Shown: positions 28,260-61,742 of the stretch, piece after piece
Layout: each line of letters begins with the position of its first letter
Position numbering within the stretch: the stretch's first letter is position 1
DNA from: Nitrospiraceae bacterium
GTDB lineage: Bacteria > Nitrospirota > Thermodesulfovibrionia > Thermodesulfovibrionales > Dissulfurispiraceae
Reading direction: 5' to 3'
Assembly: GCA_012517735.1 (NCBI GenBank)
Contig: JAAYUK010000063.1
Span: 2,671-66,670, forward strand
Length of the DNA: 64,000 nt
Notes under the pieces: model-generated
Database searches by the model: none
Told to the model about the DNA's origin: nothing
The model's input: the letters and a program-made list of their open reading frames with translations, nothing else
Program-made: the position numbers and the translations under genes

Positions 28260-29342
28260 ATGTTGTACGAGCTTTTATATGGATTGACCGATGTGAGTTC
28301 GGTCTTCAACGTATTCCGGTATATTACCTTCCGGACATCGCTTGCAGCGCTGACCGCGCTGATGGTGACGTTTCTTGCTGCGCCTGCCATCATTGCATGG
28401 CTGAGGCAGATCAGTATGACCCAGCAGATTCGGGACGACGGGCCGCAGACGCATCTGAAAAAAGCGGGTACGCCGACCATGGGCGGGCTGATCATTCTTC
28501 TTGCCGTGACGGTTGCCATGATGCTGTGGGGCAATTTCCGGAATGTCTACACTTGGGTGATCATGATTGCGCTGCTCGGCTTCGGCGCAATCGGCTTCTG
28601 GGATGATTACCTGAAAGTGATCAAAAAGAATCCGAAGGGGTTGCGCGCACTGTACAAATTCGGCGCCCAGATGCTGCTGTCGCTGGTGATCGGCATCTTT
28701 CTCTATGCCAACCCCCTTGATCCCTATTCAACAGTACTCAGTGTGCCGTTTTTCAAAAAATGGCTTTTCGATATCGGCATTTTTTATATCCCCTTTTCGG
28801 TTTTCGTTATTGTCGGATCGTCCAATGCCGTAAATCTCACGGACGGCATTGACGGACTGGCGATCGGTCTTGTAGCAATCGCAACCATCGCCAACGGGGC
28901 GCTCACCTATGTGTCCGGGCACGCGCAGTTTGCGCGCTATCTCCAGGTGCTCTTTCTGCCGGGAATCGGGGAGCTGACCGTTTTTTGCGGAGCGCTGCTT
29001 GGTGCAGCGCTGGGCTTCCTCTGGTACAACGCCTACCCGGCAGAGGTGTTCATGGGGGATGTCGGATCGCTTTCGATCGGCGGAGCGCTCGGTACGCTTG
29101 CCGTCATCACCAAGCATGAAATTGTGCTCGCCGTGGTCGGCGGCATATTCGTCATCGAGACGCTCTCGGTTGTGCTGCAGGTTGCCTCGTTCAAGATGAC
29201 CGGCAAACGGATTTTCCGGATGGCGCCGATTCATCACCACTTTGAACTGAAGGGATGGTCAGAGCCCAAAGTGATCGTGCGCTTCTGGATTGCCGGAATA
29301 ATACTTGCACTCTTCAGTCTGGCGACCTTAAAATTACGGTGA
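28260..29342 (+). CDS. mraY: Phospho-N-acetylmuramoyl-pentapeptide-transferase
   Basis: ..KAGTPTMGG..NAVNLTDGIDGLA..FMGDVGSL..APIHHHFE... Confidence 0.96.
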   Translation: MLYELLYGLTDVSSVFNVFRYITFRTSLAALTALMVTFLAAPAIIAWLRQISMTQQIRDDGPQTHLKKAGTPTMGGLIILLAVTVAMMLWGNFRNVYTWVIMIALLGFGAIGFWDDYLKVIKKNPKGLRALYKFGAQMLLSLVIGIFLYANPLDPYSTVLSVPFFKKWLFDIGIFYIPFSVFVIVGSSNAVNLTDGIDGLAIGLVAIATIANGALTYVSGHAQFARYLQVLFLPGIGELTVFCGALLGAALGFLWYNAYPAEVFMGDVGSLSIGGALGTLAVITKHEIVLAVVGGIFVIETLSVVLQVASFKMTGKRIFRMAPIHHHFELKGWSEPKVIVRFWIAGIILALFSLATLKLR

Positions 29343-43457: not shown

Positions 43458-44123
43458 TCAGGCTGTCTTCTGATCCGGAAAGGAGAGCGCCCCTTTGGGA
43501 CAGGCTGCCACACAGGTTCCGCATTTGATGCAGTCATTGTCCTGAAGTGTTCCTGCGGCCTTGTCCTTATAGGGTGCGAGCTGCATCGGGCATGCCTTTG
43601 CACAGAGCGTGCAGTCGATGCAGGTGTCGGCGACCGCAAGCGGTTTTTTCCCGGATGATATCCAGTTTGCAATGGTTCCCATCGGACAGACATGGCACCA
43701 TGTGCGCGGATGGATCCCTATGCCGAGGACAATGCCGATCGATGTCGTCACCGTCAAAACAACAACGAATGCCTTGCCGATGCCGTCGATATCCGGCCAC
43801 GCATATGCTATTTGTATCCCCAGAACGGCAAAGAGCAGCAGGATCATGCCTATGCGGGTGCCGGTCGAACGGAACACTGCGGGAACAGCCCTTTTCCTGC
43901 TGATGCGGTCGAGAAACAGATCGTAGAAGCTGCCGCGCGGACAGAGCCAGTCGCACCACTGGCGGCCGCGGAATGCTGCGATCCCCAATGCGCCGACCAT
44001 GCAGCCCAGAAGCAGAAAGCCGAGTTTCGGCCAGAACCAGCCGCCGATGACGACCAGCGGCAGCCCGTACCAGGTATATGATTGAAGACGCCTTCTGTGT
44101 TTTCTGAATTCCTTGAGATTCAT
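43458..44123 (-). CDS. Membrane-bound 4Fe-4S polyferredoxin (NapH/MauN-like)
   Basis: TM helices with CxxxCP motifs (WCDWLCPRG, WCHVCPMG). C-terminal 2x[4Fe-4S] (CIDCTLCAKACP..CIKCGTCVAACP). Confidence 0.8.
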   Translation of the reverse strand: MNLKEFRKHRRRLQSYTWYGLPLVVIGGWFWPKLGFLLLGCMVGALGIAAFRGRQWCDWLCPRGSFYDLFLDRISRKRAVPAVFRSTGTRIGMILLLFAVLGIQIAYAWPDIDGIGKAFVVVLTVTTSIGIVLGIGIHPRTWCHVCPMGTIANWISSGKKPLAVADTCIDCTLCAKACPMQLAPYKDKAAGTLQDNDCIKCGTCVAACPKGALSFPDQKTA

Positions 44124-44536
44124 TTCCTTCCTGCTTTCTTCTGTCGCATATATGACAGATAGGTTTCCATATCACATTTGCCCGTTTTTTTCTGGAATTC
44201 GGTGCAGTCCCTGAGCGATCGCAGATCTTCCTTTGCCTGTGCGCTTGCAGACAGTTCACTTCTCAGCACATCCATCAGCGTCTGCTGCGGAAGCGGCAGG
44301 TTTTTTTTGAGAGAATAAAAGATCATCTTCCCTTCGCGCCTGTCATCAAGGTAACCGCCTTTCATCAGAAGGGAGAGGTTCCTTGATACCAGCGGCTGAG
44401 ACATGCCCAATACTCCCATGATCTGGCAAACGCAAAGTTCTTTGCGGTCCAGCAGCAAAAGTATGCGTATGCGTGATGCATCCGCCAGAAGCTTGAAGTG
44501 ATCAATCGCCGTTCTCATAAACATATTTAAATCCAT
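44120..44536 (-). CDS. ArsR/SmtB family metalloregulator (CVC motif) with Cys-containing C-terminal extension
   Basis: ..LLADASRIRILLLLDRKELCVCQIMGVLGMSQPLVSRNLSLL... ATGA overlap with the polyferredoxin gene. Confidence 0.85.
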   Translation of the reverse strand: MDLNMFMRTAIDHFKLLADASRIRILLLLDRKELCVCQIMGVLGMSQPLVSRNLSLLMKGGYLDDRREGKMIFYSLKKNLPLPQQTLMDVLRSELSASAQAKEDLRSLRDCTEFQKKTGKCDMETYLSYMRQKKAGRK

Positions 44537-45427: not shown

Positions 45428-45469
45428 TTGATCATTTCGGGATGCGTTCATTATAATGTGCATATGCAC
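45428..45469 (+). promoter_or_regulatory. Sigma70 promoter plus 12-bp palindromic operator for the NifX-like/DUF134/YedE operon
   Basis: TTGATC (45428-33), 18-nt spacer, TATAAT (45452-57), immediately followed by the perfect palindrome GTGCATATGCAC (45458-69). Confidence 0.7.
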
Positions 45470-45489
45470 AAAATGAGCGGAGGTTTTTC

Positions 45490-45870
45490 ATGAAAATCTG
45501 TTTCCCGGTTGAACAGTCAGAAGGCATGCAGAGCAAGGTGTACGGTCACTTCGGGTCAGCCCCGGTGTTTGTTGTGGTCGATACGGAAGTACAGTCGGTA
45601 ACCGAAATCGTCAATCGTGATCTCCACCATCAGCATGGCGCCTGCAGCCCGATCAAGGCGCTCGGCGGGGCTGCTGTCGACGCGATTGTTGTCGGCGGCA
45701 TCGGAGCCGGTGCATTGATGAAGTTGCAGGAGGCGGGCATGCAGGTATATCGGGCCGGTGCATACACGATTGCCGAGAATATGAATTTGATGCAAAGGGG
45801 CATGCTCCAGATTCTGCAGCCGCATCAGGTCTGCGGCGGCCATGCTCACGGCGGCGGCTGCTCCCACTGA
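45490..45870 (+). CDS. NifX/NifB-like (dinitrogenase FeMo-cofactor-binding fold, COG1433; orange-protein-like) protein with Cys/His tail
   Basis: MKICFPVEQSEGMQSKVYGHFGSAPVFVVVD..AIVVGGIGAGAL..AGMQVY.., tail CGGHAHGGGCSH. Paralog of 58192-58566. Confidence 0.85.
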   Translation: MKICFPVEQSEGMQSKVYGHFGSAPVFVVVDTEVQSVTEIVNRDLHHQHGACSPIKALGGAAVDAIVVGGIGAGALMKLQEAGMQVYRAGAYTIAENMNLMQRGMLQILQPHQVCGGHAHGGGCSH

Positions 45871-45953: not shown

Positions 45954-46241
45954 ATGGGACGAACGAAGAAACCCAGAACCTGCGGCTGCCCGTTTGACGA
46001 GCTGAAATGCTGCATATTCAAACCGCGGGGCATCCCGATGCATTCGCTGCAGCGTACGGTCATCAGTCTGGATGAAATCGAGGCCCTTCGTCTGTGTGAC
46101 GGAGAAAGTCTGACGCAGGAGGAAGCCGGTACCCGCATGGGGATTTCCCGGGGGACGGTTCAGCGGTTGCTGGAGAGCGGCAGAAGAAAAACCATTTCAG
46201 CGCTCGTTGATGCAACGGCAATTATAATCGAAAAACCATAG
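45954..46241 (+). CDS. DUF134 (UPF0251) predicted DNA-binding protein
   Basis: ..FKPRGIPM..ISLDEIEALRLCDGESLTQEEAGTRMGISRGTVQRLL.. is a sigma-70 region-4-like HTH. Cys-rich N-terminus (CGC..CC). Confidence 0.8.
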   Translation: MGRTKKPRTCGCPFDELKCCIFKPRGIPMHSLQRTVISLDEIEALRLCDGESLTQEEAGTRMGISRGTVQRLLESGRRKTISALVDATAIIIEKP

Positions 46242-50642: not shown

Positions 50643-51101
50643 ATGCCACGTCCCAAATGCCAGAGACAGATCGCCGGACTCCCTGCCTCTACCTACTTCA
50701 AGCCGCGGGGAATCCCGATGTCGGATCTCGAGGAAGTAATCCTGACGATCGATGAAGTGGAAGCGATACGCCTTGCCGATCACGAAGGGCTCTATCAGGA
50801 ACAGGCGGCCGAGTTCATGAAGATTTCCCGCCAGACGTTCGGGCGGGTAATCGCCTCTGCGCACCGGAAGATCGCCGATGCCCTGGTTACCGGTAAGGCA
50901 TTGCGGATTGAAGGCGGTGTTGTCAGTTTCGCGCAGGCGACAAAATACCGGTGCGCTTCCTGTGATGAAAAATGGTCGCCTCCGAGCGGCACGGGTGCGC
51001 CCGCAATCTGTCCGTCCTGCGGCAGCAGTGCTCTTGGCGCTCATGCAGACATCCATCACCGTCACAGAAAAGGCCGGGCCGGTAAGAACTCCCGGGGTTA
51101 A
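50643..51101 (+). CDS. DUF134 DNA-binding protein fused to a C-terminal CxxC..CxxC zinc ribbon
   Basis: MPRPKCQRQI..YFKPRGIPM..IDEVEAIRLADHEGLYQEQAAEFMKISRQTFGRV.., then ..YRCASCDEKW..ICPSCGS. Confidence 0.8.
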   Translation: MPRPKCQRQIAGLPASTYFKPRGIPMSDLEEVILTIDEVEAIRLADHEGLYQEQAAEFMKISRQTFGRVIASAHRKIADALVTGKALRIEGGVVSFAQATKYRCASCDEKWSPPSGTGAPAICPSCGSSALGAHADIHHRHRKGRAGKNSRG

Positions 51102-51387: not shown

Positions 51388-52230
51388 TTATTTCAGCACA
51401 ATCCGAAGTCCTGCATAGCCGATGCGGACTGCGTGTGGAAATGCGTCTGTCAGTGCGGCGATTGCCCGTTCCCCGCTGCAGTGGCAGGGGACGATCAATT
51501 CAGGCGCAAAGGACTGCAGCGCCGAGACCGTGTATGCGATGCGCTCGTCCGATGCGTTCATGAGATGCAAGCCTCCGATAACGGCACGTATTCTCTCATC
51601 TGGTCCCGTAAGGCTGATCACATGATGGAGCGTGTTTACAATTCCCGCGTGGGCACAGCCGACACAGACGACAATTCCTTCCGGCGTTCGTATCCAGAGC
51701 GCCATGTCGTCTTCGAGCAGGTCGCTCCTGACGGGGGCAGGGTCAAGATAAAAGGGGCCGCCGGTATCCTCAATACCATTGTTCCGGGGAATATGACCGG
51801 TGATGCCGACGGTTCTGCTCAGCTGAAACGGTTCGGCCGATGGACAGAAGCGGCCGGTCGGCAGGCTTTCCGCCGCAGCCCGTGCATCTCCCTGCATGCC
51901 GATGCTTCTGACGGTACCGTCACGGATACTATAGCGTTCGCGAAGCGCTTCCGGATGACAGAACAGATGCGGATACCTGGCGAGAGAAAGAACATGGGCG
52001 ACTCCGCCTGTGTGGTCATAATGGCCATGGCTCAGGATCACCGCATTCGTCAGCGACAGATGAATTCCCATCTTTTCGGCATTCGGGATCAACGCACCAC
52101 CCTGCCCGGTGTCGAACAGCAGCCGCATGCCGTCCGCCTCGATCCAGAGGGCGAGGCCATGTTCGCGCACGAAACCGTCGGCAGTCCGGTTATCTGCGAG
52201 AATGCTGATGATCACGCGCTCTTTGTCCAT
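51388..52230 (-). CDS. MBL-fold metallo-hydrolase
   Basis: ..LLFDTGQG.. and HGHYDHTGG (HxHxDH motif). Confidence 0.85.
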   Translation of the reverse strand: MDKERVIISILADNRTADGFVREHGLALWIEADGMRLLFDTGQGGALIPNAEKMGIHLSLTNAVILSHGHYDHTGGVAHVLSLARYPHLFCHPEALRERYSIRDGTVRSIGMQGDARAAAESLPTGRFCPSAEPFQLSRTVGITGHIPRNNGIEDTGGPFYLDPAPVRSDLLEDDMALWIRTPEGIVVCVGCAHAGIVNTLHHVISLTGPDERIRAVIGGLHLMNASDERIAYTVSALQSFAPELIVPCHCSGERAIAALTDAFPHAVRIGYAGLRIVLK

Positions 52231-52361
52231 GGACGACCTTCTCCTGTCCGATGCCTGTGTTTCAACAGATCATCATCGAAAGGAATCCCCCGATGATGAC
52301 TACGTACAGTATATCCGTTTTCCCGACCAATGCGGCAAGTACAGCAGAGCGGGCTACAAAC

Positions 52362-54059
52362 CTATTTTTCCCTCGGATACGGCCATGCCGCAATGCCGCC
52401 TTCCATTACCCTGACATTCTTCCACCCGTTCGCTTCAAGCACCAGTGCCGCTTCATAGCCGCGCAGGGAGATCTTGCAGAACGCGATGATTTCACGATCC
52501 TTGTCAGAAGGAAGTTCCGCCAGTCGTTTCCGGAGTGCTCCGAGCGGGATGAGTGTTTCGCCGGCGCCGATACGCATCTCTTCATATTCGTCAGGACCGC
52601 GGGCATCGAGCAGAAACGGTTTTTCGCCGCGGTCGAGTTTGGTCTTTACCTCTTCAGGGGTCAGCCCCTTCAGCCGCCCAAGCAGTTTGTTTTGCATGAG
52701 GTGGGCCGTCGCAATGCCGTGGTCGATTGCGAGCGAAAACGGTGGCGCATACGGAAGGTCGGCGTTTGCCATGTCGTCGACCGTCAGATTGCCGAGGATC
52801 GCCATTGCCCATTGCGCTATCTGCCGGTTCACATTGCCGGGCCCGGCACACTGGGCGCCGAGGATTCGTCCGGTTTTCCGGTCGGCAACCAGTTTGGTGA
52901 CAAGGAGCTTCCCCTTCATGAAACCGGGCAGGTCCGGGCTTGCGTTGATCACCGATACCGCATCGAATCCGTGCTCTCTGGCCGAGCGCTCCGAGAGGCC
53001 GGTTGCGCCGGCGGAAAAATCAAAGACTTTGCAGATGCCGGTCTGGATGGTTCCCGGAAAGGTCACCCGGTTGCCGAGCACGGCGTTTTCACCCGCAACG
53101 CGTCCTTCGAGATTGGCGAGATCGCCATAGGGGGCAAGCACTTTCTTCCCGGTGATCCGGTGCGTCAGCTCCACACAGTCGCCGACAGCGTAAATGTCGG
53201 GATCGGACGTCTGCATATACTGATCGACGACGATTCCTCCCGTATCTCCGATAGCGAGTCCTGCTTTTTTCGCCAGAACGGCATTGGGCGCAACGCCGAT
53301 GGCGACCACCGCAAGCTCGCAGGGCAGTTCAGTGCCGTTCTGCAGTTTGACGCCGGTCAGCACCCCATCGTTTCCCAGAAAAGCCGCGATACCGTTGCCG
53401 GTGATCACATTGACGCCTTTGCTCCTGACATGGTTTTCGACCAGTTTTGCGATGTCGAAGTCGAGAAAGGTCAACAGCTGGGGCAGCATCTCGATGACGG
53501 TGAGTTCCAGTCCGGCAAGTTGAAGGGCTTCACAGGTTTCGATGCCGATCAATCCCTCGCCGATAATGACCGCCTTTTTGATCGTGCCGCCATCCCGCAC
53601 GGCGCGCAAATAGTCCGCATCCTGCATGGACTGGAGGGTCGTGATGCCTTTCAGGTCGGCTCCTGGGACCGGCGGCCTCCGGGGGACCGATCCGGTCGCA
53701 AGAATCAGTTTGTCGTAGGTCAGTGAGCCGGTTTCCCCCGTGAGCAGATTGGTGAAGGAAACCCGTTTCTCTGCGCGTTCGATGCTGGTCACCTCCGTCG
53801 AGACGCGCGCATCGATCCCTTTTGCGTTCAGATAGAATTTGGGATCGCGCACTACCCCGGCAGGAGTGGCAAGCAGCTGGTTGCGGTCGTCGAAGAATCC
53901 GCCGACGTAATACGGATAGCCGCATGAGGCCATGGAGAGCTCCGGGCCCTTCTGGAGTAAAACAATCTCTGCGTGTTCATTGCAGCGTCGTGCCTTTGCC
54001 GCTGCCTTCGGTCCGGCCGCCGAGCCGCCGATAACGACAATACGCGTGGTTTGAGTCAT
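52362..54059 (-). CDS. CoA-disulfide reductase/NADH-oxidase-family flavoprotein with C-terminal rhodanese domain
   Basis: VVIGGSAAGPKAA (FAD), redox Cys in ..SMASCGYPYY.., second Rossmann motif IIGEGLIGIE, and rhodanese loop ..IAFCKISLRG. Confidence 0.85.
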   Translation of the reverse strand: MTQTTRIVVIGGSAAGPKAAAKARRCNEHAEIVLLQKGPELSMASCGYPYYVGGFFDDRNQLLATPAGVVRDPKFYLNAKGIDARVSTEVTSIERAEKRVSFTNLLTGETGSLTYDKLILATGSVPRRPPVPGADLKGITTLQSMQDADYLRAVRDGGTIKKAVIIGEGLIGIETCEALQLAGLELTVIEMLPQLLTFLDFDIAKLVENHVRSKGVNVITGNGIAAFLGNDGVLTGVKLQNGTELPCELAVVAIGVAPNAVLAKKAGLAIGDTGGIVVDQYMQTSDPDIYAVGDCVELTHRITGKKVLAPYGDLANLEGRVAGENAVLGNRVTFPGTIQTGICKVFDFSAGATGLSERSAREHGFDAVSVINASPDLPGFMKGKLLVTKLVADRKTGRILGAQCAGPGNVNRQIAQWAMAILGNLTVDDMANADLPYAPPFSLAIDHGIATAHLMQNKLLGRLKGLTPEEVKTKLDRGEKPFLLDARGPDEYEEMRIGAGETLIPLGALRKRLAELPSDKDREIIAFCKISLRGYEAALVLEANGWKNVRVMEGGIAAWPYPREK

Positions 54060-54082
54060 GTGCGTGATCCTCCTCGTTTTAT

Positions 54083-54311
54083 CTCAAAACTGTCATTCGG
54101 ATTCGACCGAAATCGCTCAGAGTCCGGCAGGGCAGGCAACAGAGCGGATTTATTCGGCGAAGCGGCACATACAGGACGTATGTGCCGGGCGAATACCTCG
54201 GACGACGGCTGGACGCCGTCCGGGAAGCGGGGCCTCCGAAAATGTCGGAGACTTTTCGGGGTGGCAGTTGAGCGGCGTTGCTTGCCGTGCCGAGCTAATG
54301 AGAATTCTCGG
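54083..54311 (+). mobile_element. MITE copy 3 (229 bp)
   Basis: CTCAAAACTGTCA...TGAGAATTCTCGG, flanked by direct TTTAT at 54078-82 and 54312-16. The near end lies 23 bp upstream of the flavoprotein start codon. Confidence 0.78.
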
Positions 54312-54322
54312 TTTATAAGCAT

Positions 54323-54412
54323 AAAAAAACGCATGGGCCCTGTCAGCAGAGGATAGCATGCAGACCGCGAGAAGTACGACCGACCCGCTGAACAGAACGG
54401 ACGGCCCATGCG
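54323..54412 (-). terminator. Long-stem terminator-like structure after the mrp/ORP-like operon
   Basis: Reverse strand has CGCATGGGCC, about 63 nt, GGCCCATGCG, then TTTTTTT. The interior can extend the stem (CTGTTCAGC/GCTGACAG). Confidence 0.5.
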
Positions 54413-54422
54413 CATCAGGGCG

Positions 54423-55262
54423 CTAAGCGATATTCCGGACAAGGGTATCGACCAACGCCGAGAAAGCCCTGCCCGAAGGGCTCTCCGCGGCATGCTGTAT
54501 CACCGGTTCCCCACTGTCGCCGGATGCGGCAACTGCGGCATCAAGCGGAATGCTTCCCAGAAACGGGATCTGCATCTCCGCTGCGAGGGCTTCGCCACCG
54601 CCTTTTTTGAAGATATTCACGACCGTCCCGCAGTGCGGACAGGCAAAACCGCTCATGTTTTCGACCAGTCCGATGATCGGAATGCCGACTTCCCGGCAGA
54701 AGGTGATCGATTTGCGCACATCCTCCAGCGCGACATCCTGGGGGGTTGTGACGATTATCGCCCCGTCGGGGTTCTTGAGCAGTTGAACGATTGAAATCGG
54801 TTCGTCGCCGGTGCCCGGGGGGCAATCGACAACGAGCCAGTCACGGGGTCCCCATGCAACATCGCCGAGGAACTGCTTGATGACCCCATGTTTCAGCGGA
54901 GCACGCCAGATGAGCGCATTGTTGCGGTCCTGCAGGAGAAATCCGACCGACATGACCGACAGCAGTCCGTCATACCCGACCGGAAGCAGGGATTCTCCAT
55001 CCTGCTCCGGCAGCATCCCTTCGAGTCCGAGAATTTTTGGGATACTCGGCCCATGAATATCGATATCGACCAGACCGGTCCTCAGGCCGCGCAGGGCGAG
55101 TCCGACGGCAATATTTGCGGCCACCGAGCTTTTGCCGACGCCTCCCTTGCCGGAAAGAACGAGTATTTTGTGGCGGATTTGCTCCATGCGGTGCTGCACC
55201 GCATTCTGCTCCTGTTCAATCCATTGTGTGTCATTGCTGCCGCACGCATGTGGTGTGCTCAT
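54423..55262 (-). CDS. mrp: Mrp/NBP35 (ApbC-type) Fe-S cluster carrier ATPase
   Basis: ..ILVLSGKGGVGKSSVAANIA..VDIDIHGPS..DCPPGTGDE..CPHCG... Start is uncertain (55262, 55295 or 55187). Confidence 0.85.
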   Translation of the reverse strand: MSTPHACGSNDTQWIEQEQNAVQHRMEQIRHKILVLSGKGGVGKSSVAANIAVGLALRGLRTGLVDIDIHGPSIPKILGLEGMLPEQDGESLLPVGYDGLLSVMSVGFLLQDRNNALIWRAPLKHGVIKQFLGDVAWGPRDWLVVDCPPGTGDEPISIVQLLKNPDGAIIVTTPQDVALEDVRKSITFCREVGIPIIGLVENMSGFACPHCGTVVNIFKKGGGEALAAEMQIPFLGSIPLDAAVAASGDSGEPVIQHAAESPSGRAFSALVDTLVRNIA

Positions 55263-56169
55263 GTCCGGTGTTCCTTTCTTGCTGTATGGTGTCAAAAAGT
55301 CTCAGAATATTCTTGGTAATTGTCCGCAATGCCTCCGCGGCCCGGCTTTCGGGATAGCAACGGGCCAGAGGAATCCCCTGCGCGATGGCGAGCGGGACGT
55401 GAATGTCATACGGGATTTCTCCGAGTACGGTGATTCCGCGTTCCGCCATGCGGGAACGGATGGTTTCAGCCCCCTCAGGATTGATATCCGCCTTGTTGAT
55501 GATTACGCCGGTCACCGGGTCAAAATATGCCGTCACTTCAAGCAGGCGCTCCAGATCGCTCAGCGCCGGCGCGGTCGGTTCCGTTATGGCCAGCACAGCG
55601 TCGCAGCCTTTCAGCGATGAGATAACCGGACAGCCGATGCCGGGCGGGCCGTCGATGATGAGATAGTCAGCCCGGTCATCCTGTGCGACGTTTCGTGCTT
55701 CATTTTTGACCAGATCCACAATCTTGCCGGAACTGCTCTGACCAACCGTCAACTCGCCCGAAACGAGATTGCGCACACCGTTCCGGAACAGATGCAGATA
55801 GCCGTTCTGCATGCGTTTTATGCTGACGGCGTGTTCCGGGCATTCGGCCACACACGCTCCGCAGGCTTCACAAAAGAGCGGCAGCATGACCGGTATCTTC
55901 TCATCCGGCAGCAGTGCGCCGAAACTGCACACCGCAGTGCAATCCATGCAGCCGATGCAACGGGTCTCGTCAATCACGGCTTTTTCGGATGCAAAAACCG
56001 GAGCGCTTTTTATCGGCTCAGCTCCGGTGATGATATGCAGATTCGGTGCGTCCACATCGGTATCGGCCAGTGTGATGATGAGGCCGGCAGGCAGGAGTTC
56101 CGCCAATGAGGCAGTGATGCTCGATTTGCCGACACCGCCTTTTCCGCTCAGGATGACCACTTCTTTCAT
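55231..56169 (-). CDS. MinD-superfamily P-loop ATPase with inserted 2x[4Fe-4S] ferredoxin domain (COG1149-like)
   Basis: MKEVVILSGKGGVGKSS.., CIGCMDCTAVC.., CEACGACVAECP. The ATG overlaps (ATGA) the upstream gene's stop. Confidence 0.85.
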   Translation of the reverse strand: MKEVVILSGKGGVGKSSITASLAELLPAGLIITLADTDVDAPNLHIITGAEPIKSAPVFASEKAVIDETRCIGCMDCTAVCSFGALLPDEKIPVMLPLFCEACGACVAECPEHAVSIKRMQNGYLHLFRNGVRNLVSGELTVGQSSSGKIVDLVKNEARNVAQDDRADYLIIDGPPGIGCPVISSLKGCDAVLAITEPTAPALSDLERLLEVTAYFDPVTGVIINKADINPEGAETIRSRMAERGITVLGEIPYDIHVPLAIAQGIPLARCYPESRAAEALRTITKNILRLFDTIQQERNTGHEHTTCVRQQ

Positions 56170-57101
56170 TTCAGCCACTCCCTTTCTATCCGCGCTGCCA
56201 AGTCGGTAAAGATGCGCGCTGCGGGCGAGTCAGGGTTCGTGCCGACAACGGGCAGTCCTTTCACATAGCTTTGCAGCAGGATACTGTCATGCGGAATTGA
56301 TGCAGCTACGGTAACATCCTTTGATGCAGCCTCCGGGGCAATCGTTGCCTGGCTGCCGCTCAGATTTGAGCGGTTCAGGATAATGCGGGCCGGTATTGCG
56401 AGCATTTCACAGAGATCGAGGATGAGACCGAGATCATGCATGCCGACACGGGTCGGTTCGGTGACCGCATACGCGCAGCCGGCGCCCGCGAGCGCCGCAA
56501 TAACGGTGCAATGTACCCCGGGGGCGGTATCGACGACTATGATGTCGAACCGGTCTGCTTCCGCCGCCAGGCGATCCTTGAGCGCCCGCACTATAATGGT
56601 GCTCTCCTCTCGTCCCGGGAGCAGCTCTCCGCTGAAAAGCGTAAGATTACCGGATTCTGTCCGGCAGGTAGCGCCGACGGACATCCAGCGGGTCAGCAGC
56701 GCTCCTGTCGGACAGGCGTTTATACAGGCTTTGCACCCATTGCATTCTCCCATCAATATCGGTGTCTGATCCGGCGGCAGAAAGAGCGCATTGCGGCGGC
56801 ATGCCGCAATGCAGTCCCCGCAGTGTGTGCAGAGCGATGGTTCCACGAGCGGCATGGCAACCTGGACATCGATATGGTCTTTGAGGGGAAGCGAGAGCAG
56901 AATGTGATTGTTCGGCGCTTCCGTATCCGCATCGACCAGTGCCACTGCATGTCCGCGGGCTGCCAGGGCAGCTGCAATATTGACGGCAACGGTTGATTTG
57001 CCGACACCACCTTTGCCACCCGTAACAGCAATAACCGGCGTTGCATACGGGTGATCGTGCAAGGCTTCCAGTTGCCGGGCGGTAAAGACCTCTGCAGTCA
57101 C
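56166..57101 (-). CDS. MinD-superfamily P-loop ATPase with inserted 2x[4Fe-4S] ferredoxin domain (second copy)
   Basis: ..VIAVTGGKGGVGKSTVA.., CTHCGDCIAAC.., CNGCKACINACP. GTG start overlaps the upstream stop (GTGA). Confidence 0.85.
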   Translation of the reverse strand: MTAEVFTARQLEALHDHPYATPVIAVTGGKGGVGKSTVAVNIAAALAARGHAVALVDADTEAPNNHILLSLPLKDHIDVQVAMPLVEPSLCTHCGDCIAACRRNALFLPPDQTPILMGECNGCKACINACPTGALLTRWMSVGATCRTESGNLTLFSGELLPGREESTIIVRALKDRLAAEADRFDIIVVDTAPGVHCTVIAALAGAGCAYAVTEPTRVGMHDLGLILDLCEMLAIPARIILNRSNLSGSQATIAPEAASKDVTVAASIPHDSILLQSYVKGLPVVGTNPDSPAARIFTDLAARIEREWLK

Positions 57102-57478
57102 GAGCGGCCTCGCCCGGCCGACCCTTTACGTGCCTGTGCCCCGGTGCTCCGCCGGAGCAGGCCGTCCGAATAGTTTTTCACGGCGGTTTTTACCTCCATG
57201 CCGGCGCTGAGCCCGTCGTAAATGGCAATGCCCGCCGCCTGCAGGGCTGCATATGCCTTGGGTCCGACGAACCCGGTAAGCACTGCGTTGACCCCTTTTT
57301 GTGCTACGCTCTGAGCGGCGGCTATGCCAGCGCCCTGCCCGGCGTCCATTGCCGGATTCGCAATCGTTTCGTGCTGCATGGTATCGGGATCCACGAGCAC
57401 GAAGAACGGCGCCCGGCCGAAGCGTTCATCAACGCGAGCATCCAGGCCGTGACCTGAAGCGGTTATGCAGATTTTCAT
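57098..57478 (-). CDS. NifX/NifB-like (COG1433, orange-protein-like) protein
   Basis: MKICITASGHGLDARVDERFGRAPFFVLVD..VLTGFVGPKAY..AGIAIY.., with a basic tail and no Cys/His tail. Confidence 0.85.
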   Translation of the reverse strand: MKICITASGHGLDARVDERFGRAPFFVLVDPDTMQHETIANPAMDAGQGAGIAAAQSVAQKGVNAVLTGFVGPKAYAALQAAGIAIYDGLSAGMEVKTAVKNYSDGLLRRSTGAQARKGSAGRGRS

Positions 57479-57508
57479 TCCATGACTCCCTTCATCGTTG
57501 CGTGCATC

Positions 57509-57772
57509 CTATTCGTTCTTGGTGAGTGCATCAAGGCGTTTCCGCACGTCTGTCAGCGCCCGTTCGAGGGCGGTAGCTTCCTCGGTAAGCCATGCACGTT
57601 CGTCGGAAGGATCCGTTGCACGCAGTCCCGGCTGGAAACGGGCTCCCAAGAACCGGCGCCCCATGCCACGTCCGCTAAACCCCTGACGCCGCATCCCGGC
57701 GCCGCACGGCCCCAAACCTCTGCCGGTACCCGGGCCGAACCCCTGAGGACCTGTCTGATTGAATCCCGGCAT
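57509..57772 (-). CDS. DUF5320 protein (Gly-rich N-terminus, coiled-coil C-terminus)
   Basis: MPGFNQTGPQGFGPGTGRGLGPCGAG..., then ..LTEEATALERALTDVRKRLDAL. AGGAGG RBS. Confidence 0.75.
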   Translation of the reverse strand: MPGFNQTGPQGFGPGTGRGLGPCGAGMRRQGFSGRGMGRRFLGARFQPGLRATDPSDERAWLTEEATALERALTDVRKRLDALTKNE

Positions 57773-57812
57773 GATCATCACCTCCTTTCTTTAATAGCAT
57801 ATGCCCATAATT

Positions 57813-58190
57813 TCAGTCCAAAAACTCTGCACACCCAGCGAGACGGGCAATTTCTTTGAGCATGCAGAGTCCGTTGGGAAGGCTGCATGCCCCGGTTTTT
57901 CGCTGTGCGGCTGGATGTTCCGGCTCGACGATATCTCCGAGCACACCATATATCGAGAGCATAAGAGCTCGCGCGCTCTCTCCGCCTGACCAGTTGGTCA
58001 CGCACGCTTCCGTCTCGATCAGTTTCTTTCGTGCGGCTTCCAAGGTCACTGCGAAGGATTTACAGTTTCTGCACAACTCATCCTTCTGCTGGTGGTGCAG
58101 CATACCGAACAGGCAATGCAGTGTCCGGACGCCGGCCTCGATCGTGTTTTCGGGACGGACTCTCGCGGTACTGTCAGTCGTATGCGCCAT
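57813..58190 (-). CDS. Cys-rich hypothetical protein
   Basis: 125 aa with 8 Cys (..LHCLFG..CRNC..EACV..GACSLPNGLCML..GCAEF). The ATG lies 1 nt after the upstream stop. No family was recognised. Confidence 0.5.
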   Translation of the reverse strand: MAHTTDSTARVRPENTIEAGVRTLHCLFGMLHHQQKDELCRNCKSFAVTLEAARKKLIETEACVTNWSGGESARALMLSIYGVLGDIVEPEHPAAQRKTGACSLPNGLCMLKEIARLAGCAEFLD

Positions 58191-58191
58191 G

Positions 58192-58566
58192 TCAGTGTTC
58201 ACATCCGCCCGCGTGTCCCGCGCAGGTGTCGGTCATGCCGAATATCGGCAGCATGCTTTTCTGGAACAGGGAGATATTTTCCTTCACGGTCGGCGCTTCG
58301 GCCCGGTAAATCCGGATGCCAGCCTGTGCAAGCCTGCTGAGCGCACCTGCCCCGATACCGCCGACAATGAGCGCATCGATCTCGGCGCCGCCAAGCTTCG
58401 CAAAGGGGTTGCACGTTCCGCCATGTTCGTGCAGCGCCTGATTCTGGATCGGCGTCAGCACATTCGTTTCCGTGTCATACACGGCAAACGTCTGCGAGGA
58501 CCCGAAATGGGGGTTAACCTCGCTCTCCAGCTCTTTGAACTCATGGATGGGAAAACAGATTTTCAT
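58192..58566 (-). CDS. NifX/NifB-like (COG1433, orange-protein-like) protein with Cys/His tail
   Basis: MKICFPIHEFKELESEVNPHFGSSQTFAVYD..LIVGGIGAGAL..AGIRIY.., tail CAGHAGGCEH. AAGGAGG RBS. Confidence 0.85.
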   Translation of the reverse strand: MKICFPIHEFKELESEVNPHFGSSQTFAVYDTETNVLTPIQNQALHEHGGTCNPFAKLGGAEIDALIVGGIGAGALSRLAQAGIRIYRAEAPTVKENISLFQKSMLPIFGMTDTCAGHAGGCEH

Positions 58567-58591
58567 GAGAACCTCCTTGGTGTTTGATGTT

Positions 58592-58620
58592 ATTTTATGA
58601 GCATATGCTCAAAAAGTCAA
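58592..58620 (-). promoter_or_regulatory. Sigma70 promoter with 14-bp palindromic operator for the ORP-like cluster
   Basis: Reverse strand: TTGACT (58620-15), 17-nt spacer containing TGAGCATATGCTCA (58598-58611), TAAAAT (58597-92). Confidence 0.7.
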
Positions 58621-58727
58621 GAGATGAGTCCTTGTCCGGTTCACCGGCCGCGCCACCCCCATTGGTGTAGACATCCCAAGTGCTTCAAATGTCAAGGTCT
58701 GGTACAATGTCAGCAAGGGATAGAGCC

Positions 58728-59657
58728 ATGACAACAGTGCGAATATTCATTTTCATGATCGTGCTCGTTTGGGTGATTTCCTGCACAAACGAGACGGTCA
58801 TTCCTGTTGATCTGTCAAAGCGTTCCGATATTACGGCTTCGCGCGAAAGTGATGTGATCACGTATGCGTATCTCCCCCAATACTCGCATCGCACGTCGTA
58901 TCAGCGCCATCATCTTTTGATCAAATATCTGCGCGCCGAAACCGGCCTCAAGATCGAGCAGATTTTCCCCGATACGTTTGATGAGCATATCCGCATGGTT
59001 GGACAGGGCAAGATCGACATCACGTTTTCCAACCCCATGGTATACGCGTTGCTGGCGAAGCGCTACGGTTCGCAGGCATTTGCCCGGATTATCGAACTGG
59101 ACGGAAAGGCGGAGTTCAGGGGGCTCATTTTCACCCGGTCCGATAACGCCGCCATACGAACTCTCCAGGACTGCCGGGGGAAACGCTGGTATGCCGTTGA
59201 CCCGGCATCGGCCGGAGGTTACCTGTTCGGTCTCGGTCATTTTTACGAGCATGGTATCCGGAAGGAAGACTTTGCGGAGATTGCGTTTGCTCCCGGGCCG
59301 GGAGGCAAATCCGAGAAGGTGGTGCTCGCTGTTCATGCGGGGAAATACGATTTCGGTACGGTGCGGGAAGGAACGCTTGCGGTCGTCGCGGACAAGATCG
59401 ATATCACCGAAATCCGGGTGATTGCCCAGACCCGCTGGTACCCAGGCTGGGTATATTCCGCGCGCAAAGGACTCGACCCGGATGTCATTGCACGCATCAG
59501 GGAAGCCATGCTCAGACTGGACCGCGGCAATCCCGAGCACCGGCGTATTCTCGAAGCCGCAACGTTCAGCGGCATCATTCCTTCGCATGACCGGGACTTC
59601 GAGGCGCTCAATGCGCTGATCGCCACGGTCGGACTTCCTCCGGGGTCGCCCGACTGA
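58728..59657 (+). CDS. PhnD-like periplasmic substrate-binding lipoprotein
   Basis: Lipobox (LVWVISC). The pattern ..PQYS......Y..L..YL....G........D....I.....G..D..F.... matches phosphonate-type SBPs. Precedes the sensor kinase. Confidence 0.7.
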   Translation: MTTVRIFIFMIVLVWVISCTNETVIPVDLSKRSDITASRESDVITYAYLPQYSHRTSYQRHHLLIKYLRAETGLKIEQIFPDTFDEHIRMVGQGKIDITFSNPMVYALLAKRYGSQAFARIIELDGKAEFRGLIFTRSDNAAIRTLQDCRGKRWYAVDPASAGGYLFGLGHFYEHGIRKEDFAEIAFAPGPGGKSEKVVLAVHAGKYDFGTVREGTLAVVADKIDITEIRVIAQTRWYPGWVYSARKGLDPDVIARIREAMLRLDRGNPEHRRILEAATFSGIIPSHDRDFEALNALIATVGLPPGSPD

Positions 59658-59660
59658 GCC

Positions 59661-61742
59661 ATGCGATTCTTCATCAGAAAACTGCGGCAGGCCCGCTTCG
59701 GAACCAAGATCACGACGAGCATCGTCGTGATTCTCCTGCTGTTGGGCATCGGGCTTTCGATCATGATGCATCAACTGGTGCTGCGGTCCCTGCTTTCGGA
59801 GAGCAAAGTACGCGGTGCTTCCCAAGTAGTGAATCTTGCAGCGCGTGCGGTTGAACCCGTGCTTGCGATTGACTATCTCCAGCTTCGGAATCTGGCGGAT
59901 GGTCTCCTGAAAGCCGATCCGGATGCGCTCTATGCTTTTGTCACGGATGCAAAGGGAGTGCCCATGGTTCACACGTTCGGCGCCGCATTCCCGACTGACC
60001 TGAGCGCAGTGAACCCGGTTGCTGATACGGAATCGCACCGCGTCGTGCGACTGACAACAGGAAGTCAGGACATCTATGACTTTGCGGCTCCGATCATGAT
60101 CGGTACCGACCGGATCGGCACCGTGCGGGTCGGTCTTTCGCTGGACCGCATTTATCTCGTGGTCCGGCAGGTTACCCTGACCATCATTGTGTCGATCGCG
60201 ATCGCCATGGCGATCGCCGGGCTGGTCAGCGCAGCGCTTGCACAAACGGTCACGCGGAAGATACGGATTCTGCACGCCGCCGCCGAAGAGGTCATCAAGG
60301 GAAATCTCGATATCAGGGCGGCGCAACGGATCGGCGAAAACTGCTGGGATATCATGCGGTGCGGGAAAGAGGCATGTCCTGCATATGGCGATACGTCCCG
60401 CCGCTGCTGGTATCTGGTCGGCACCCTCTGTGGATCATGCGCGGAAGGAGAGTACCGGAGCAAGATCGAAAGCTGCCGGGAATGTGATGTCTATAAAAAG
60501 AACGCAGGCGATGAGGTCGAGCATCTTGCGGAGTTTTTTGATGTCATGGCATTCACGCTGAAAGAGCGGCTCGAAAAACTGCGCGCGGCTGAACTCGACC
60601 TCCGGCAGCAGCAACAGCTGGTTCAGACCATCCTGGACGCTACCCCGGACCTGGTCTCGCTGAAGGACGTCGATTTCCGGTATCGCAGCGTCAACAAGGC
60701 ATTTTGTTCCTTTGTGGGAAGGGATGAGCAGGACATCCTCGGCAAAACGGTGACCGAAGTCTTCTCCCCGGAACAGGCGGTGCTCGCTACCAACGAGGAG
60801 GCTCATGTCATGCAGACCGGGGAAGCGGTATCGGTTGAGCGGGTGTTTGTCTCGCCGCACGCTGGAGAGCGGCAGTTTCATGTCGTCAAGACGGCGGTGC
60901 ATGATGCTGACGGCTCCATCATCGGTGTTTTGAGCACGGCGCGCGATATCACTGAAATGCGCAGATTGCATGAGCGGGTGGCGAATGCGCAGCGGCTTGA
61001 GTCGATCGGTCGGCTTGCCGCCGGGGTTGCACACGAAATCAATACGCCGCTGGGCATTATTCTGGGATATGCACAACTTGCCGCCGAGGACTTGCCGGAA
61101 GGGTCCGAGCTTCGTGAGCATGTCGGCCTGATAGAAAAGTATGCGCGTGTCTGCAGGAAAATCGTTGCCGACCTGCTCAGCTTTTCCCGCAATACCGAAA
61201 GCATGATGCAGCCGCTCGATCTGAATGAGATCATCGTGCAGATTACCGCCATTGTCGAGCACACATTCGGTCTCGACCGCATTGCCATTGTCCGTTCGCT
61301 TGCGGCCGATCTCCCATCGGTGCGCGGAGACCGGGACAAACTGGGGCAGGTGCTGATGAATCTGTTGACGAATGCCCGCGATGCGATCGGGTCGGACGGC
61401 GTCATAACCGTGCGGACCCGTTTTGATCCCGAGACGAATGAAGCGGTTGTCGAGGTGTCGGATACGGGTGCGGGGATCTCTCCCGAGAACCGGGAACGCA
61501 TCTTTGAACCGTTCTTTACCACAAAAGGGGTTGGTAAGGGAACAGGACTCGGTCTTTCCGTCACCTTTGGCATAGTAAAGGAACATGGCGGCAGGATCGA
61601 TCTGGTCAGTCCCTATCTGCCGCATGAGACGGAAACGGAAACCGGCGGCGGGCGTGGGACGCTGTTCAGTATCAGGCTGCCGGTGCAGACGCAATCACAC
61701 ATGAAGGAGGATGTACAGGATGGCGCATATTCTGGTGCTTGA
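59661..61742 (+). CDS. Sensor histidine kinase (TM, sensor, HAMP, 8-Cys module, PAS, HisKA, HATPase)
   Basis: H-box AAGVAHEINTPLG, N-box LMNLLTNARDA, G-boxes DTGAGI and GTGLGLS. Cys module NCWDIMRCGKEACPAY..RCWYLVGTLCGSC..CRECDVY. Confidence 0.88.
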   Translation: MRFFIRKLRQARFGTKITTSIVVILLLLGIGLSIMMHQLVLRSLLSESKVRGASQVVNLAARAVEPVLAIDYLQLRNLADGLLKADPDALYAFVTDAKGVPMVHTFGAAFPTDLSAVNPVADTESHRVVRLTTGSQDIYDFAAPIMIGTDRIGTVRVGLSLDRIYLVVRQVTLTIIVSIAIAMAIAGLVSAALAQTVTRKIRILHAAAEEVIKGNLDIRAAQRIGENCWDIMRCGKEACPAYGDTSRRCWYLVGTLCGSCAEGEYRSKIESCRECDVYKKNAGDEVEHLAEFFDVMAFTLKERLEKLRAAELDLRQQQQLVQTILDATPDLVSLKDVDFRYRSVNKAFCSFVGRDEQDILGKTVTEVFSPEQAVLATNEEAHVMQTGEAVSVERVFVSPHAGERQFHVVKTAVHDADGSIIGVLSTARDITEMRRLHERVANAQRLESIGRLAAGVAHEINTPLGIILGYAQLAAEDLPEGSELREHVGLIEKYARVCRKIVADLLSFSRNTESMMQPLDLNEIIVQITAIVEHTFGLDRIAIVRSLAADLPSVRGDRDKLGQVLMNLLTNARDAIGSDGVITVRTRFDPETNEAVVEVSDTGAGISPENRERIFEPFFTTKGVGKGTGLGLSVTFGIVKEHGGRIDLVSPYLPHETETETGGGRGTLFSIRLPVQTQSHMKEDVQDGAYSGA

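Follow-up and report, generated by a model that had tools for sequence, protein, structure and literature searches.

We analysed a stretch of 64,000 nt from contig JAAYUK010000063.1 of a Nitrospiraceae bacterium (assembly GCA_012517735.1, 2.71 Mb in total), hereafter the window, and focused on a perfect 14-bp palindrome, TGAGCATATGCTCA, that lies between the −35 and −10 hexamers of the promoter preceding a seven-gene ORP-like operon. The same window encodes two proteins of the DUF134/UPF0251 family (PF02001), which fall into two types, A and B, and the type-B protein is the candidate for binding the palindrome. The features on which the argument depends are the following.

58615 to 58620, minus strand: −35 hexamer TTGACT of the ORP-like cluster promoter (sequence and promoter scan; TTGACT also stands before the orthologous cluster of a congeneric genome, L002).
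58614-58612, minus strand: ttt linking the −35 hexamer to the palindrome (sequence).
58598 to 58611, no strand assigned: predicted type-B DUF134 operator, the perfect 14-bp palindrome (sequence, matrix score and ortholog identity).
58592 to 58597, minus strand: −10 hexamer TAAAAT, abutting the 14-mer and closing a spacer of 17 nt (sequence and promoter scan).
58572 to 58578, minus strand: Shine-Dalgarno sequence AAGGAGG (sequence).
58566, minus strand: start ATG of the first NifX-like gene (sequence).
54423 to 58566, minus strand: ORP-like operon of seven genes, predicted to be regulated (open reading frames, Pfam, tight or overlapping junctions).
50643 to 51101, plus strand: type-B DUF134 gene, 152 residues, with helix MKISRQTFGRV and a C-terminal CxxC...CxxC ribbon; predicted binder of the focal operator (PF02001, 84.4 bits).
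45954 to 46241, plus strand: type-A DUF134 gene, 95 residues, with helix SRGTVQR; predicted binder of the site at 45457 (PF02001, 67-68 bits).
45457 to 45470, no strand assigned: predicted type-A operator TGTGCATATGCACA, the sister site, directly after the TATAAT of a NifX-like/DUF134-A/YedE operon whose NifX-like gene lies at 45490.
57794 to 57807, no strand assigned: weaker predicted type-B site inside the ORP-like operon, minus strand ttaTGGGCATATGCTATtaa / TGGGCATATGCTAT (motif search, 21.3 bits).

Read on the minus strand, the focal promoter runs cTTGACT-ttt-TGAGCATATGCTCA-TAAAAT-aacatcaaacacc-AAGGAGG-ttctc-ATG, with 25 nt between the end of the −10 box and the ATG. An earlier note on this DNA, made from the letters alone, had described exactly this arrangement, with the palindrome filling the 17-nt spacer, and both the coordinates and a promoter scan agree with it. 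Across the minus strand from 52000 to 60500 the scan returned the focal site as the only good σ70-like match (10 of 12 hexamer positions); the near-TTGACA and near-TATAAT boxes, a spacer within 16-18 nt and the placement before the gene are those of a σ70-type promoter, and the promoter-like match taken alone does not exceed the shuffle expectation. Transcription would be expected to start near 58585. As the same note had also stated, no TGGCAC-N5-TTGC element is present, here searched with up to two mismatches on the minus strand between 58567 and 58900, and a σ54 promoter was rejected, since no −24/−12 element stands on the correct strand before the cluster; rpoN, encoding σ54, is found elsewhere in the genome. 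When the palindrome is extended to the 20-mer at 58595-58614 (minus strand TTTTGAGCATATGCTCATAA), one flank pair is mismatched.

A palindrome of this length is in itself no rarity. The window contains eight perfect 14-bp palindromes (3.9 expected) and the genome 232, and a motif search with three mismatches did not rise above shuffles, so that we rejected the palindrome alone as significant. The specific motif TGNGCATATGCNCA occurs exactly twice in the 2.71-Mb genome (approximately 0.15 expected), and each copy closely precedes one of two paralogous NifX-like genes. When the whole genome was scanned with a weight matrix whose training sites all came from other genomes, the three sites of the window took the top three ranks (33.0, 32.3 and 21.3 bits), the focal site being second with 32.3 bits and the internal site before the DUF5320 gene third with 21.3 bits, while the next best match reached 17.5 bits. 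Matches at or below this score (on C267, C61, C156, C162 and C128) were intragenic or poorly placed and were not accepted as additional regulon members. Among the low-scoring matches, a 12-bp palindrome outside the window, TAGCATATGCTA (G000, C128:9109-9128; 14.4 bits), lies in AT-rich intergenic DNA between convergent/adjacent open reading frames and was likewise not accepted. Within the window, TGAGCATATCCGCA at 58982-58995, with two mismatches and fewer than 12 bits, is situated inside the divergent binding-protein gene and is probably due to chance.

The motif is also conserved, together with its position. Of 30 loci with NifX-like homologs in the same family and order, about 18 have G[TA]GCATATGC[AT]C upstream of the gene, beside a σ70-like promoter. 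In a congeneric genome, the true ortholog of the focal gene (73% identity; L002, G003) is still preceded by TTGACT-TTTA-TGAGCATATGCTCA-TAAACT, with a 14-mer identical to the focal one, which also fits the cross-phylum type-B consensus TTA-TGRGCATATGCYYA-TAA. Across 41 relatives, NifX-like and DUF134 genes occur together in 18, each occurs alone in two, and 19 have neither. The exact motif TGDGCATATGCHCA was found in 12 of the 20 DUF134-positive relatives as opposed to one of the 21 DUF134-negative ones, and a reversed control pattern gave 0 matches; the NifX-like genes of genomes without DUF134 (L017, L020) carry no motif. Moreover, in the relatives examined, DUF134 genes are nearly always located inside, or divergent from, the site-bearing operon. 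One order-level relative, G025, carries three exact 14-mers on three contigs (C3:70739, C7:72574 and C19:901423), and its DUF134 regulon may exceed that of the window genome.

PF02001/UPF0251, an old family with no assigned function, occurs widely among anaerobic bacteria and archaea, and in the literature searched we found no publication on a function or a motif of DUF134 (UPF0251, COG1342, PF02001). At the Pfam cut-off of 27 bits, the two genes of the window are the only copies in the genome. Type A is characterised by an N-terminal KKPRxCxCPF, by LEAMRLCD and by the recognition helix SRGTVQR, and type B by an N-terminal MPRPxxCR...YFKPRGIP, by EAIRLAD, by the helix SR[QAP]TFGR and usually by a C-terminal CxxC...CxxC ribbon, whose four cysteines are invariant across 58 homologs. 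An AlphaFold model of the type-B protein (58 homologs) has a mean predicted local distance difference test score of 78, with values above 90 in the helix-turn-helix core. In Foldseek comparisons this helix-turn-helix superposes on ECF σ region 4 and on the DNA-binding domain of Bacillus subtilis DeoR bound to its operator (for DeoR, root-mean-square deviation 0.7-0.9 and 38% identity over 39 residues). A profile search against the PDB likewise matched the helix-turn-helix to 7bhy (E = 4e-4) and the ribbon to zinc ribbons of the HypA and Rpo12 type, and a single-sequence search additionally matched the rubredoxin-like end of rubrerythrin; Foldseek and the PDB profile search gave sub-domain matches only and no whole-chain structural relative. 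The type-B gene of the window is solitary, a peculiarity shared with G003; it lies 7.5 kb from the focal operator on the other strand and converges on a CoADR operon. Neither inspection of the sequence upstream of 50643 nor the matrix scan revealed an operator there; we thus rejected autoregulation for this gene, which is probably not autoregulated in this genome, and the second type-B copy of G003 likewise has no operator of its own.

We scanned one genome per species with the DUF134 alignment and collected 80 type-B loci, belonging to Acidobacteriota, Desulfobacterota/Syntrophia, Planctomycetota, Omnitrophota, Spirochaetota, Elusimicrobia, Ignavibacteria, Bacteroidales, Nitrospirota and others. 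After neutralising column ±5 of the matrix and requiring 16 bits or more, we found a site at 67 of these 80 loci (69 matches in 790 kb, against 0-1 in shuffles). Almost all of these sites are situated 25-60 bp upstream of the DUF134 start, and in three cases (L109, L116 and L133) the site heads an operon whose last gene is DUF134. The genes downstream encode NifX-like proteins (approximately 45 loci), Mrp, MinD-Fer4, DUF5320 and CoADR, which are the families of the window’s cluster and the adjacent CoADR operon. The dominant architecture, cTTGACA-N2-TTA-TGAGCATATGCTTA-TAAT, combines a consensus −35 hexamer with an operator that fills the 17-nt spacer and whose last two bases overlap a TATAAT. 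The earlier note had proposed comparison with the cluster promoters of other anaerobes as a check, and at homologous type-B loci the combination of TTGACA and TATAAT with an operator in the spacer recurs. A recognisable TTGACA accompanies 55 type-B sites, and the distance from this −35 hexamer to the site is 3-7 nt for 38 of them (mode 5) and 22-24 nt for 12. Since 38 of 55 sites begin 3-7 nt after this hexamer, an operator within the spacer is, as judged from these sequences, the normal type-B geometry and not an oddity of the focal promoter. The focal gap is 3 nt (4 nt in G003), and by the same comparison the focal promoter is a slightly shifted type-B version, its −10 box adjoining the 14-mer without overlap.

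Type A presents a different picture. From 28 loci of the window organism’s phylum we recovered 25 sites, all with a GTGCATATGCAC core, and all 22 with a recognisable TTGACA begin 22-25 nt after the −35 hexamer, which places them immediately behind the −10 box, where they cover the start site. The two consensus operators thus differ both in sequence and in placement, with TGRGCATATGCYCA within the −35/−10 spacer for type B and GTGCATATGCAC just after the −10 box for type A. The focal TGAGCATATGCTCA falls into the type-B class by its match to TGRGCATATGCYCA, by its spacer position and by the presence in the genome of a helix of the SR[QAP]TFGR form, namely SRQTFGR. A few loci carry two operator copies 23-76 bp apart (L075, 5932-5974; L126, 5961-6010; L005, the G011:C4 intergenic region 28877-29007), either as a tandem or in the region separating divergently oriented DUF134 and NifX genes, which suggests cooperative binding or the control of two promoters.

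The sequence differences between the operators covary with residues of the DUF134 recognition helix. Every one of the 28 type-A loci encodes a helix of the form SRGT[VI][QH]R, and most type-B loci encode SR[QAP]TFGR. At base ±5, the 50 half-site bases of type-A loci comprise 47 T, two A and one G, and the 138 of type-B loci 98 A, 39 G, one C and no T (Fisher 4e-41). A second position behaves in the same way: with arginine as helix residue 7, base ±6 is G in 79, A in 22 and T in three cases, as against T in 30 of 30 with asparagine (helix SRQTFGN, 15 loci, operators TTAGCATATGCTAA or TTGGCATATGCCAA; Fisher 4e-15 versus arginine); neither of these Fisher tests takes account of the shared ancestry among genomes. 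The pattern recurs across phyla and within the genus of the window organism. There, the orthologous NifX/YedE operon carries DUF134-A together with GTGCAT in G000, G001 and G005, and DUF134-B together with a GAGCAT promoter-proximal half-site, in unchanged geometry, in G003 and G004. In Desulfobacterales, DUF134-B genes with the helix SRATFGRIIQQARK, followed by Mrp, are accompanied by a shifted core, GAGTATATACTC or GAGAATATTCTC. The type-B helix of the window, SRQTFGR, predicts TGRGCATATGCYCA, which is exactly the focal site. This covariation is the strongest argument that DUF134 itself would read the site.

Several observations concern these variants themselves. The SRQTFGN proteins form a third DUF134 sub-class, whose operators, TTAGCATATGCTAA or TTGGCATATGCCAA, are found mostly after the −10 box (22-24 nt past the −35 hexamer) and not in the spacer; its loci (L067, L068, L071, L073, L078, L080, L082, L084, L085, L094, L096, L099, L109, L112 and L115) come from Omnitrophota, Ignavibacteria, Elusimicrobia, Spirochaetes and others. 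In the Desulfobacterales group (L104, L107, L113, L134, L137, L114 and L125), no more than about 3 nt separate the site from the ribosome-binding site that follows it. In the congeneric genome G001, the DUF134-A operon is followed by a short DUF134-B-like fragment (C9:333-476, 52% identity), which may be a remnant of a regulator exchange.

Given these results, we regard the palindrome as a real operator and consider it probable that it is the target of a type-B DUF134 repressor, a case of a classical mechanism carried out by a still uncharacterised family. The sequence anatomy, the genome-wide uniqueness, the conservation, the gene linkage and the protein-DNA covariation come directly from the present analysis; beyond it, we infer physical binding and its dimer stoichiometry, as well as the direction of the control, the point where transcription starts and the kind of signal. 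That a protein occupies the palindrome and lowers transcription is suggested by its position, its conservation and the protein-DNA covariation. In the proposed mechanism, a σ70-type promoter with the operator at 58598-58611 would drive the seven-gene ORP-like operon from 58566 to 54423, and a dimer of the type-B protein encoded at 50643-51101 would bind there, with each SRQTFGR helix reading one TGAGCAT half-site. Covering roughly −31 to −8, the dimer would exclude RNA polymerase and repress by occlusion. With the operator filling the 17-nt spacer right up to the −10 box, and with both boxes near consensus, a bound protein should act as a repressor. Release of the protein upon a signal would then de-repress the operon. 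This signal is perhaps sensed by the invariant Cys4 ribbon as a metal, an Fe-S cluster or a redox state; it is tempting to speculate in this direction from the ribbon, from the nature of the regulon and by analogy with OrpR. The sister site at 45457-45470 would belong to the type-A paralogue (45954-46241).

A number of points speak against this interpretation, in addition to the shared ancestry behind the Fisher tests. Hybrid GAGCATATGCAC sites occur in G003, G021, G025 and G028 and may indicate cross-binding of the two classes. The type-B gene of the window has no operator of its own, unlike most homologs, and the focal gap, at 3 nt, lies at an extreme of the type-B range. Repression as the sign of the regulation is suggested by position only. 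Finally, G029, with no detected PF02001 protein, has one exact TGAGCATATGCTCA (C39:15804-15817), which could be a chance match, the partner of a missed or divergent DUF134, or an orphan site.

Some of these points bear on the question of whether the two sites of the window represent one operator class or two. The earlier note had regarded the focal site as a second copy of the operator at 45458. Its reading of both as operators is supported, but the focal site belongs to a separate specificity class, with a GAGCAT instead of a GTGCAT half-site and a position in the spacer instead of after the −10 box; the note’s remark that the two geometries differ holds as well, given that 45457-45470 follows TATAAT and the focal site lies between the hexamers. 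One could alternatively assume a single shared class, with a degenerate base ±5 (W), in which either or both DUF134 paralogues, or a heterodimer, bind both sites as a single regulon. This would account for the GCATATGC core and the TG...CA ends common to both sites, for the hybrid sites in several relatives, including genomes with one DUF134 type only, and for a type-B gene without an operator of its own. Yet T occupies ±5 in 47 of 50 type-A and in none of 138 type-B half-site bases, the promoter position differs between the classes, G016 has both paralogues with each beside its own variant, and the within-genus regulator swap comes with a change of half-site. We therefore regard a shared class as unlikely.

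The geometry of the focal promoter raises another alternative, in which the bound protein would activate or remodel the promoter in the manner of MerR instead of repressing it. An operator between −35 and −10 is the established position of MerR-family activators, but the spacer here has the optimal 17 nt (18 nt in G003) and not 19-20 nt, and near-consensus hexamers, which are TTGACA and TATAAT in most homologous loci, leave no need for an activator. DUF134 contains neither a MerR-like fold nor a coiled coil, and the type-A sites cover the start site, as expected of a repressor. Activation of this kind thus appears quite improbable.

Also conceivable is that another regulator binds the palindrome, for instance the ArsR protein encoded at 44120-44536 or a global iron/redox regulator, and that the DUF134 genes are mere co-regulated passengers. 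The exact site in G029, which has no detectable DUF134, would fit such a scenario. It is at odds with the covariation between site and recognition helix at two positions, with the finding that, in over 60 genomes spread across many phyla, sites immediately precede DUF134 genes irrespective of the neighbouring genes, and with the missing site before the NifX-like genes of DUF134-less genomes (L017, L020). ArsR as the binder was rejected, having no linkage with the motif across genomes, and we hold the involvement of another regulator to be very unlikely. Lastly, a chance feature, an RNA hairpin or a restriction/methylation site (CATATG) without a role in transcription, for which the frequency of perfect palindromes and the unremarkable score of the promoter-like match could be cited, has next to no credibility and is effectively refuted already by the conservation data, given the top-three ranks under an externally trained matrix, the retention of motif sequence and position across phyla, and, with regard to RNA structure, which we rejected, a fold no better than shuffles (z = −0.6) and a site upstream of the predicted start.

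The internal site, which the earlier note had correctly placed before the DUF5320 gene as a weaker one, occupies the 41-bp gap between the stop of the Cys-rich open reading frame and the DUF5320 ATG at 57771. One of its halves is good (TGGGCAT) and the other weak. A site before DUF5320 is conserved in G003 (TGAGCATATGCTCT), and sites also precede DUF5320-like genes in L109; the site at 57794-57807 may be an auxiliary operator or mark an internal promoter. The operon downstream of the focal promoter consists of the following genes.

58566-58192, minus strand: NifX-like protein (Nitro_FeMo-Co, PF02579; Pfam).
58190-57813, minus strand: Cys-rich protein, 125 residues (open reading frame).
57771-57509, minus strand: DUF5320 protein (Pfam).
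57478-57098, minus strand: second NifX-like protein (Nitro_FeMo-Co, PF02579; Pfam).
57101-56166, minus strand: MinD/CbiA ATPase with two [4Fe-4S] ferredoxin-type motifs (Pfam).
56178-55231, minus strand: MinD/CbiA ATPase with two [4Fe-4S] ferredoxin-type motifs (Pfam).
55295-54423, minus strand: Mrp/NUBPL ATPase, single-domain, 290 residues (Pfam).

With an Orp8-like Nitro_FeMo-Co domain (PF02579) present twice and two Orp3/Orp4-like CbiA/ParA proteins with Fer4 domains, the cluster is ORP-like, though not in the Desulfovibrio arrangement. An MrpORP fusion is absent: against a cut-off of 450, the NCBIfam model for MrpORP reaches no more than 23-27 bits, and its sole matches are the separate NifX-like proteins. 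The Cys-rich open reading frame has no Pfam or NCBIfam match; in G003, the orthologous cluster runs NifX1-DUF5320-NifX2-MinD and lacks this frame. The divergent neighbours of the cluster encode a PhnD-like binding protein, a PAS histidine kinase and a PPDK-like protein, and there is no gene for an OrpR-like enhancer-binding protein among them. The PhnD-like gene probably starts at ATG 58728 (MTTVRIFIFMIVLV..., signal-peptide-like) and not at GTG 58680 as given by the open reading frame finder, and an extended −10-like element, TGgTACAAT, is found on the plus strand just upstream of this ATG. The focal operator is located about 117 bp from that gene start and probably exerts no control over the gene.

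If confirmed, the proposed interaction would provide the DUF134 family with a DNA motif, with a small candidate regulon of poorly understood ORP-like Fe-S/metal-cluster genes, and with residue-to-base predictions. ORP-type clusters outside Desulfovibrio would then follow a predicted logic of σ70 and repressor, as compared with the σ54/OrpR paradigm. More tentatively, one may speculate that DUF134 proteins are pan-anaerobe repressors with a simple recognition code that sense metal-sulfur clusters or redox state (through Cys4 in type B and the CxC...LCD cysteines in type A), ancestral σ70-level regulators of ORP modules that were replaced by OrpR in Desulfovibrio. In such a code, an arginine at helix residue 7 would read G and an asparagine T at ±6, with classes A and B reading T and R, respectively, at ±5, and paralogues could coexist in one genome without cross-talk; we see this broader scenario as possible, though rather doubtful.

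Among the closest known counterparts are the orp3-4-5 and orp7-8-9 operons of Desulfovibrio vulgaris Hildenborough, which share with the present cluster an orange-protein/NifX-like component, an Mrp/NBP35 ATPase and a pair of MinD-like ATPases that carry ferredoxin motifs. Both systems also have their own dedicated regulator, whose regulon is tiny (only the two orp operons for OrpR, and three sites in the genome here). The D. vulgaris operons depend on σ54, OrpR and IHF, in agreement with the earlier note as regards σ54, and the enhancer-binding protein OrpR senses redox conditions via a [4Fe-4S] PAS domain (PMC8359166, PMC3897727, PMC6345978). The present cluster differs by its σ70-type promoter with an operator in the spacer and by having no −24/−12 element and no nearby enhancer-binding protein gene, which supports that note’s suggestion of a different regulation. 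It differs further by a predicted negative control through a 152-residue helix-turn-helix protein in place of positive activation, by separate Mrp and NifX-like genes in place of a fused MrpORP, and by the additional DUF5320 and Cys-rich genes.

On the side of the regulator, the best match in sequence and fold to the DUF134 helix-turn-helix is DeoR of B. subtilis (SorC family) on the dra-nupC-pdp operator (PDB 7bhy, 8r7y), with ISRPTVSR aligned to ISRQTFGR. The palindromic operator of the DeoR repressor overlaps the promoter, and R39 of DeoR makes base contacts (PMC11229326). In contrast to DeoR, DUF134 has neither the sugar-phosphate effector domain of SorC proteins nor the tetramer architecture, and it possesses an N-terminal RPxxCR...FKPxGIP arm as well as, in type B, the Cys4 ribbon; the operators are also unrelated (TTGAACA-type for DeoR, TGAGCAT for DUF134). 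Only the 39-residue helix-turn-helix matches (E = 4e-4), the remainder being arm and ribbon, which places DUF134 outside the SorC/DeoR family. IscR, of the Rrf2 family, is an Fe-S/metal-sensing, autoregulated repressor of Fe-S biogenesis genes. From general knowledge, IscR-type regulators resemble the predicted system as small helix-turn-helix repressors with conserved cysteines that control metal-sulfur genes, and usually their own gene, via palindromes overlapping σ70 promoters. However, the DUF134 helix-turn-helix is like σ region 4 and is not a winged helix, the type-B gene is here detached from the operator, and cluster binding by DUF134 is hypothetical. MerR-family systems, for their part, share the palindrome between −35 and −10, but the spacer of 17 nt (18 nt in G003) instead of 19-20 nt, an unrelated protein family with no MerR-like fold found in DUF134, and the opposite predicted sign set the focal promoter apart from them.

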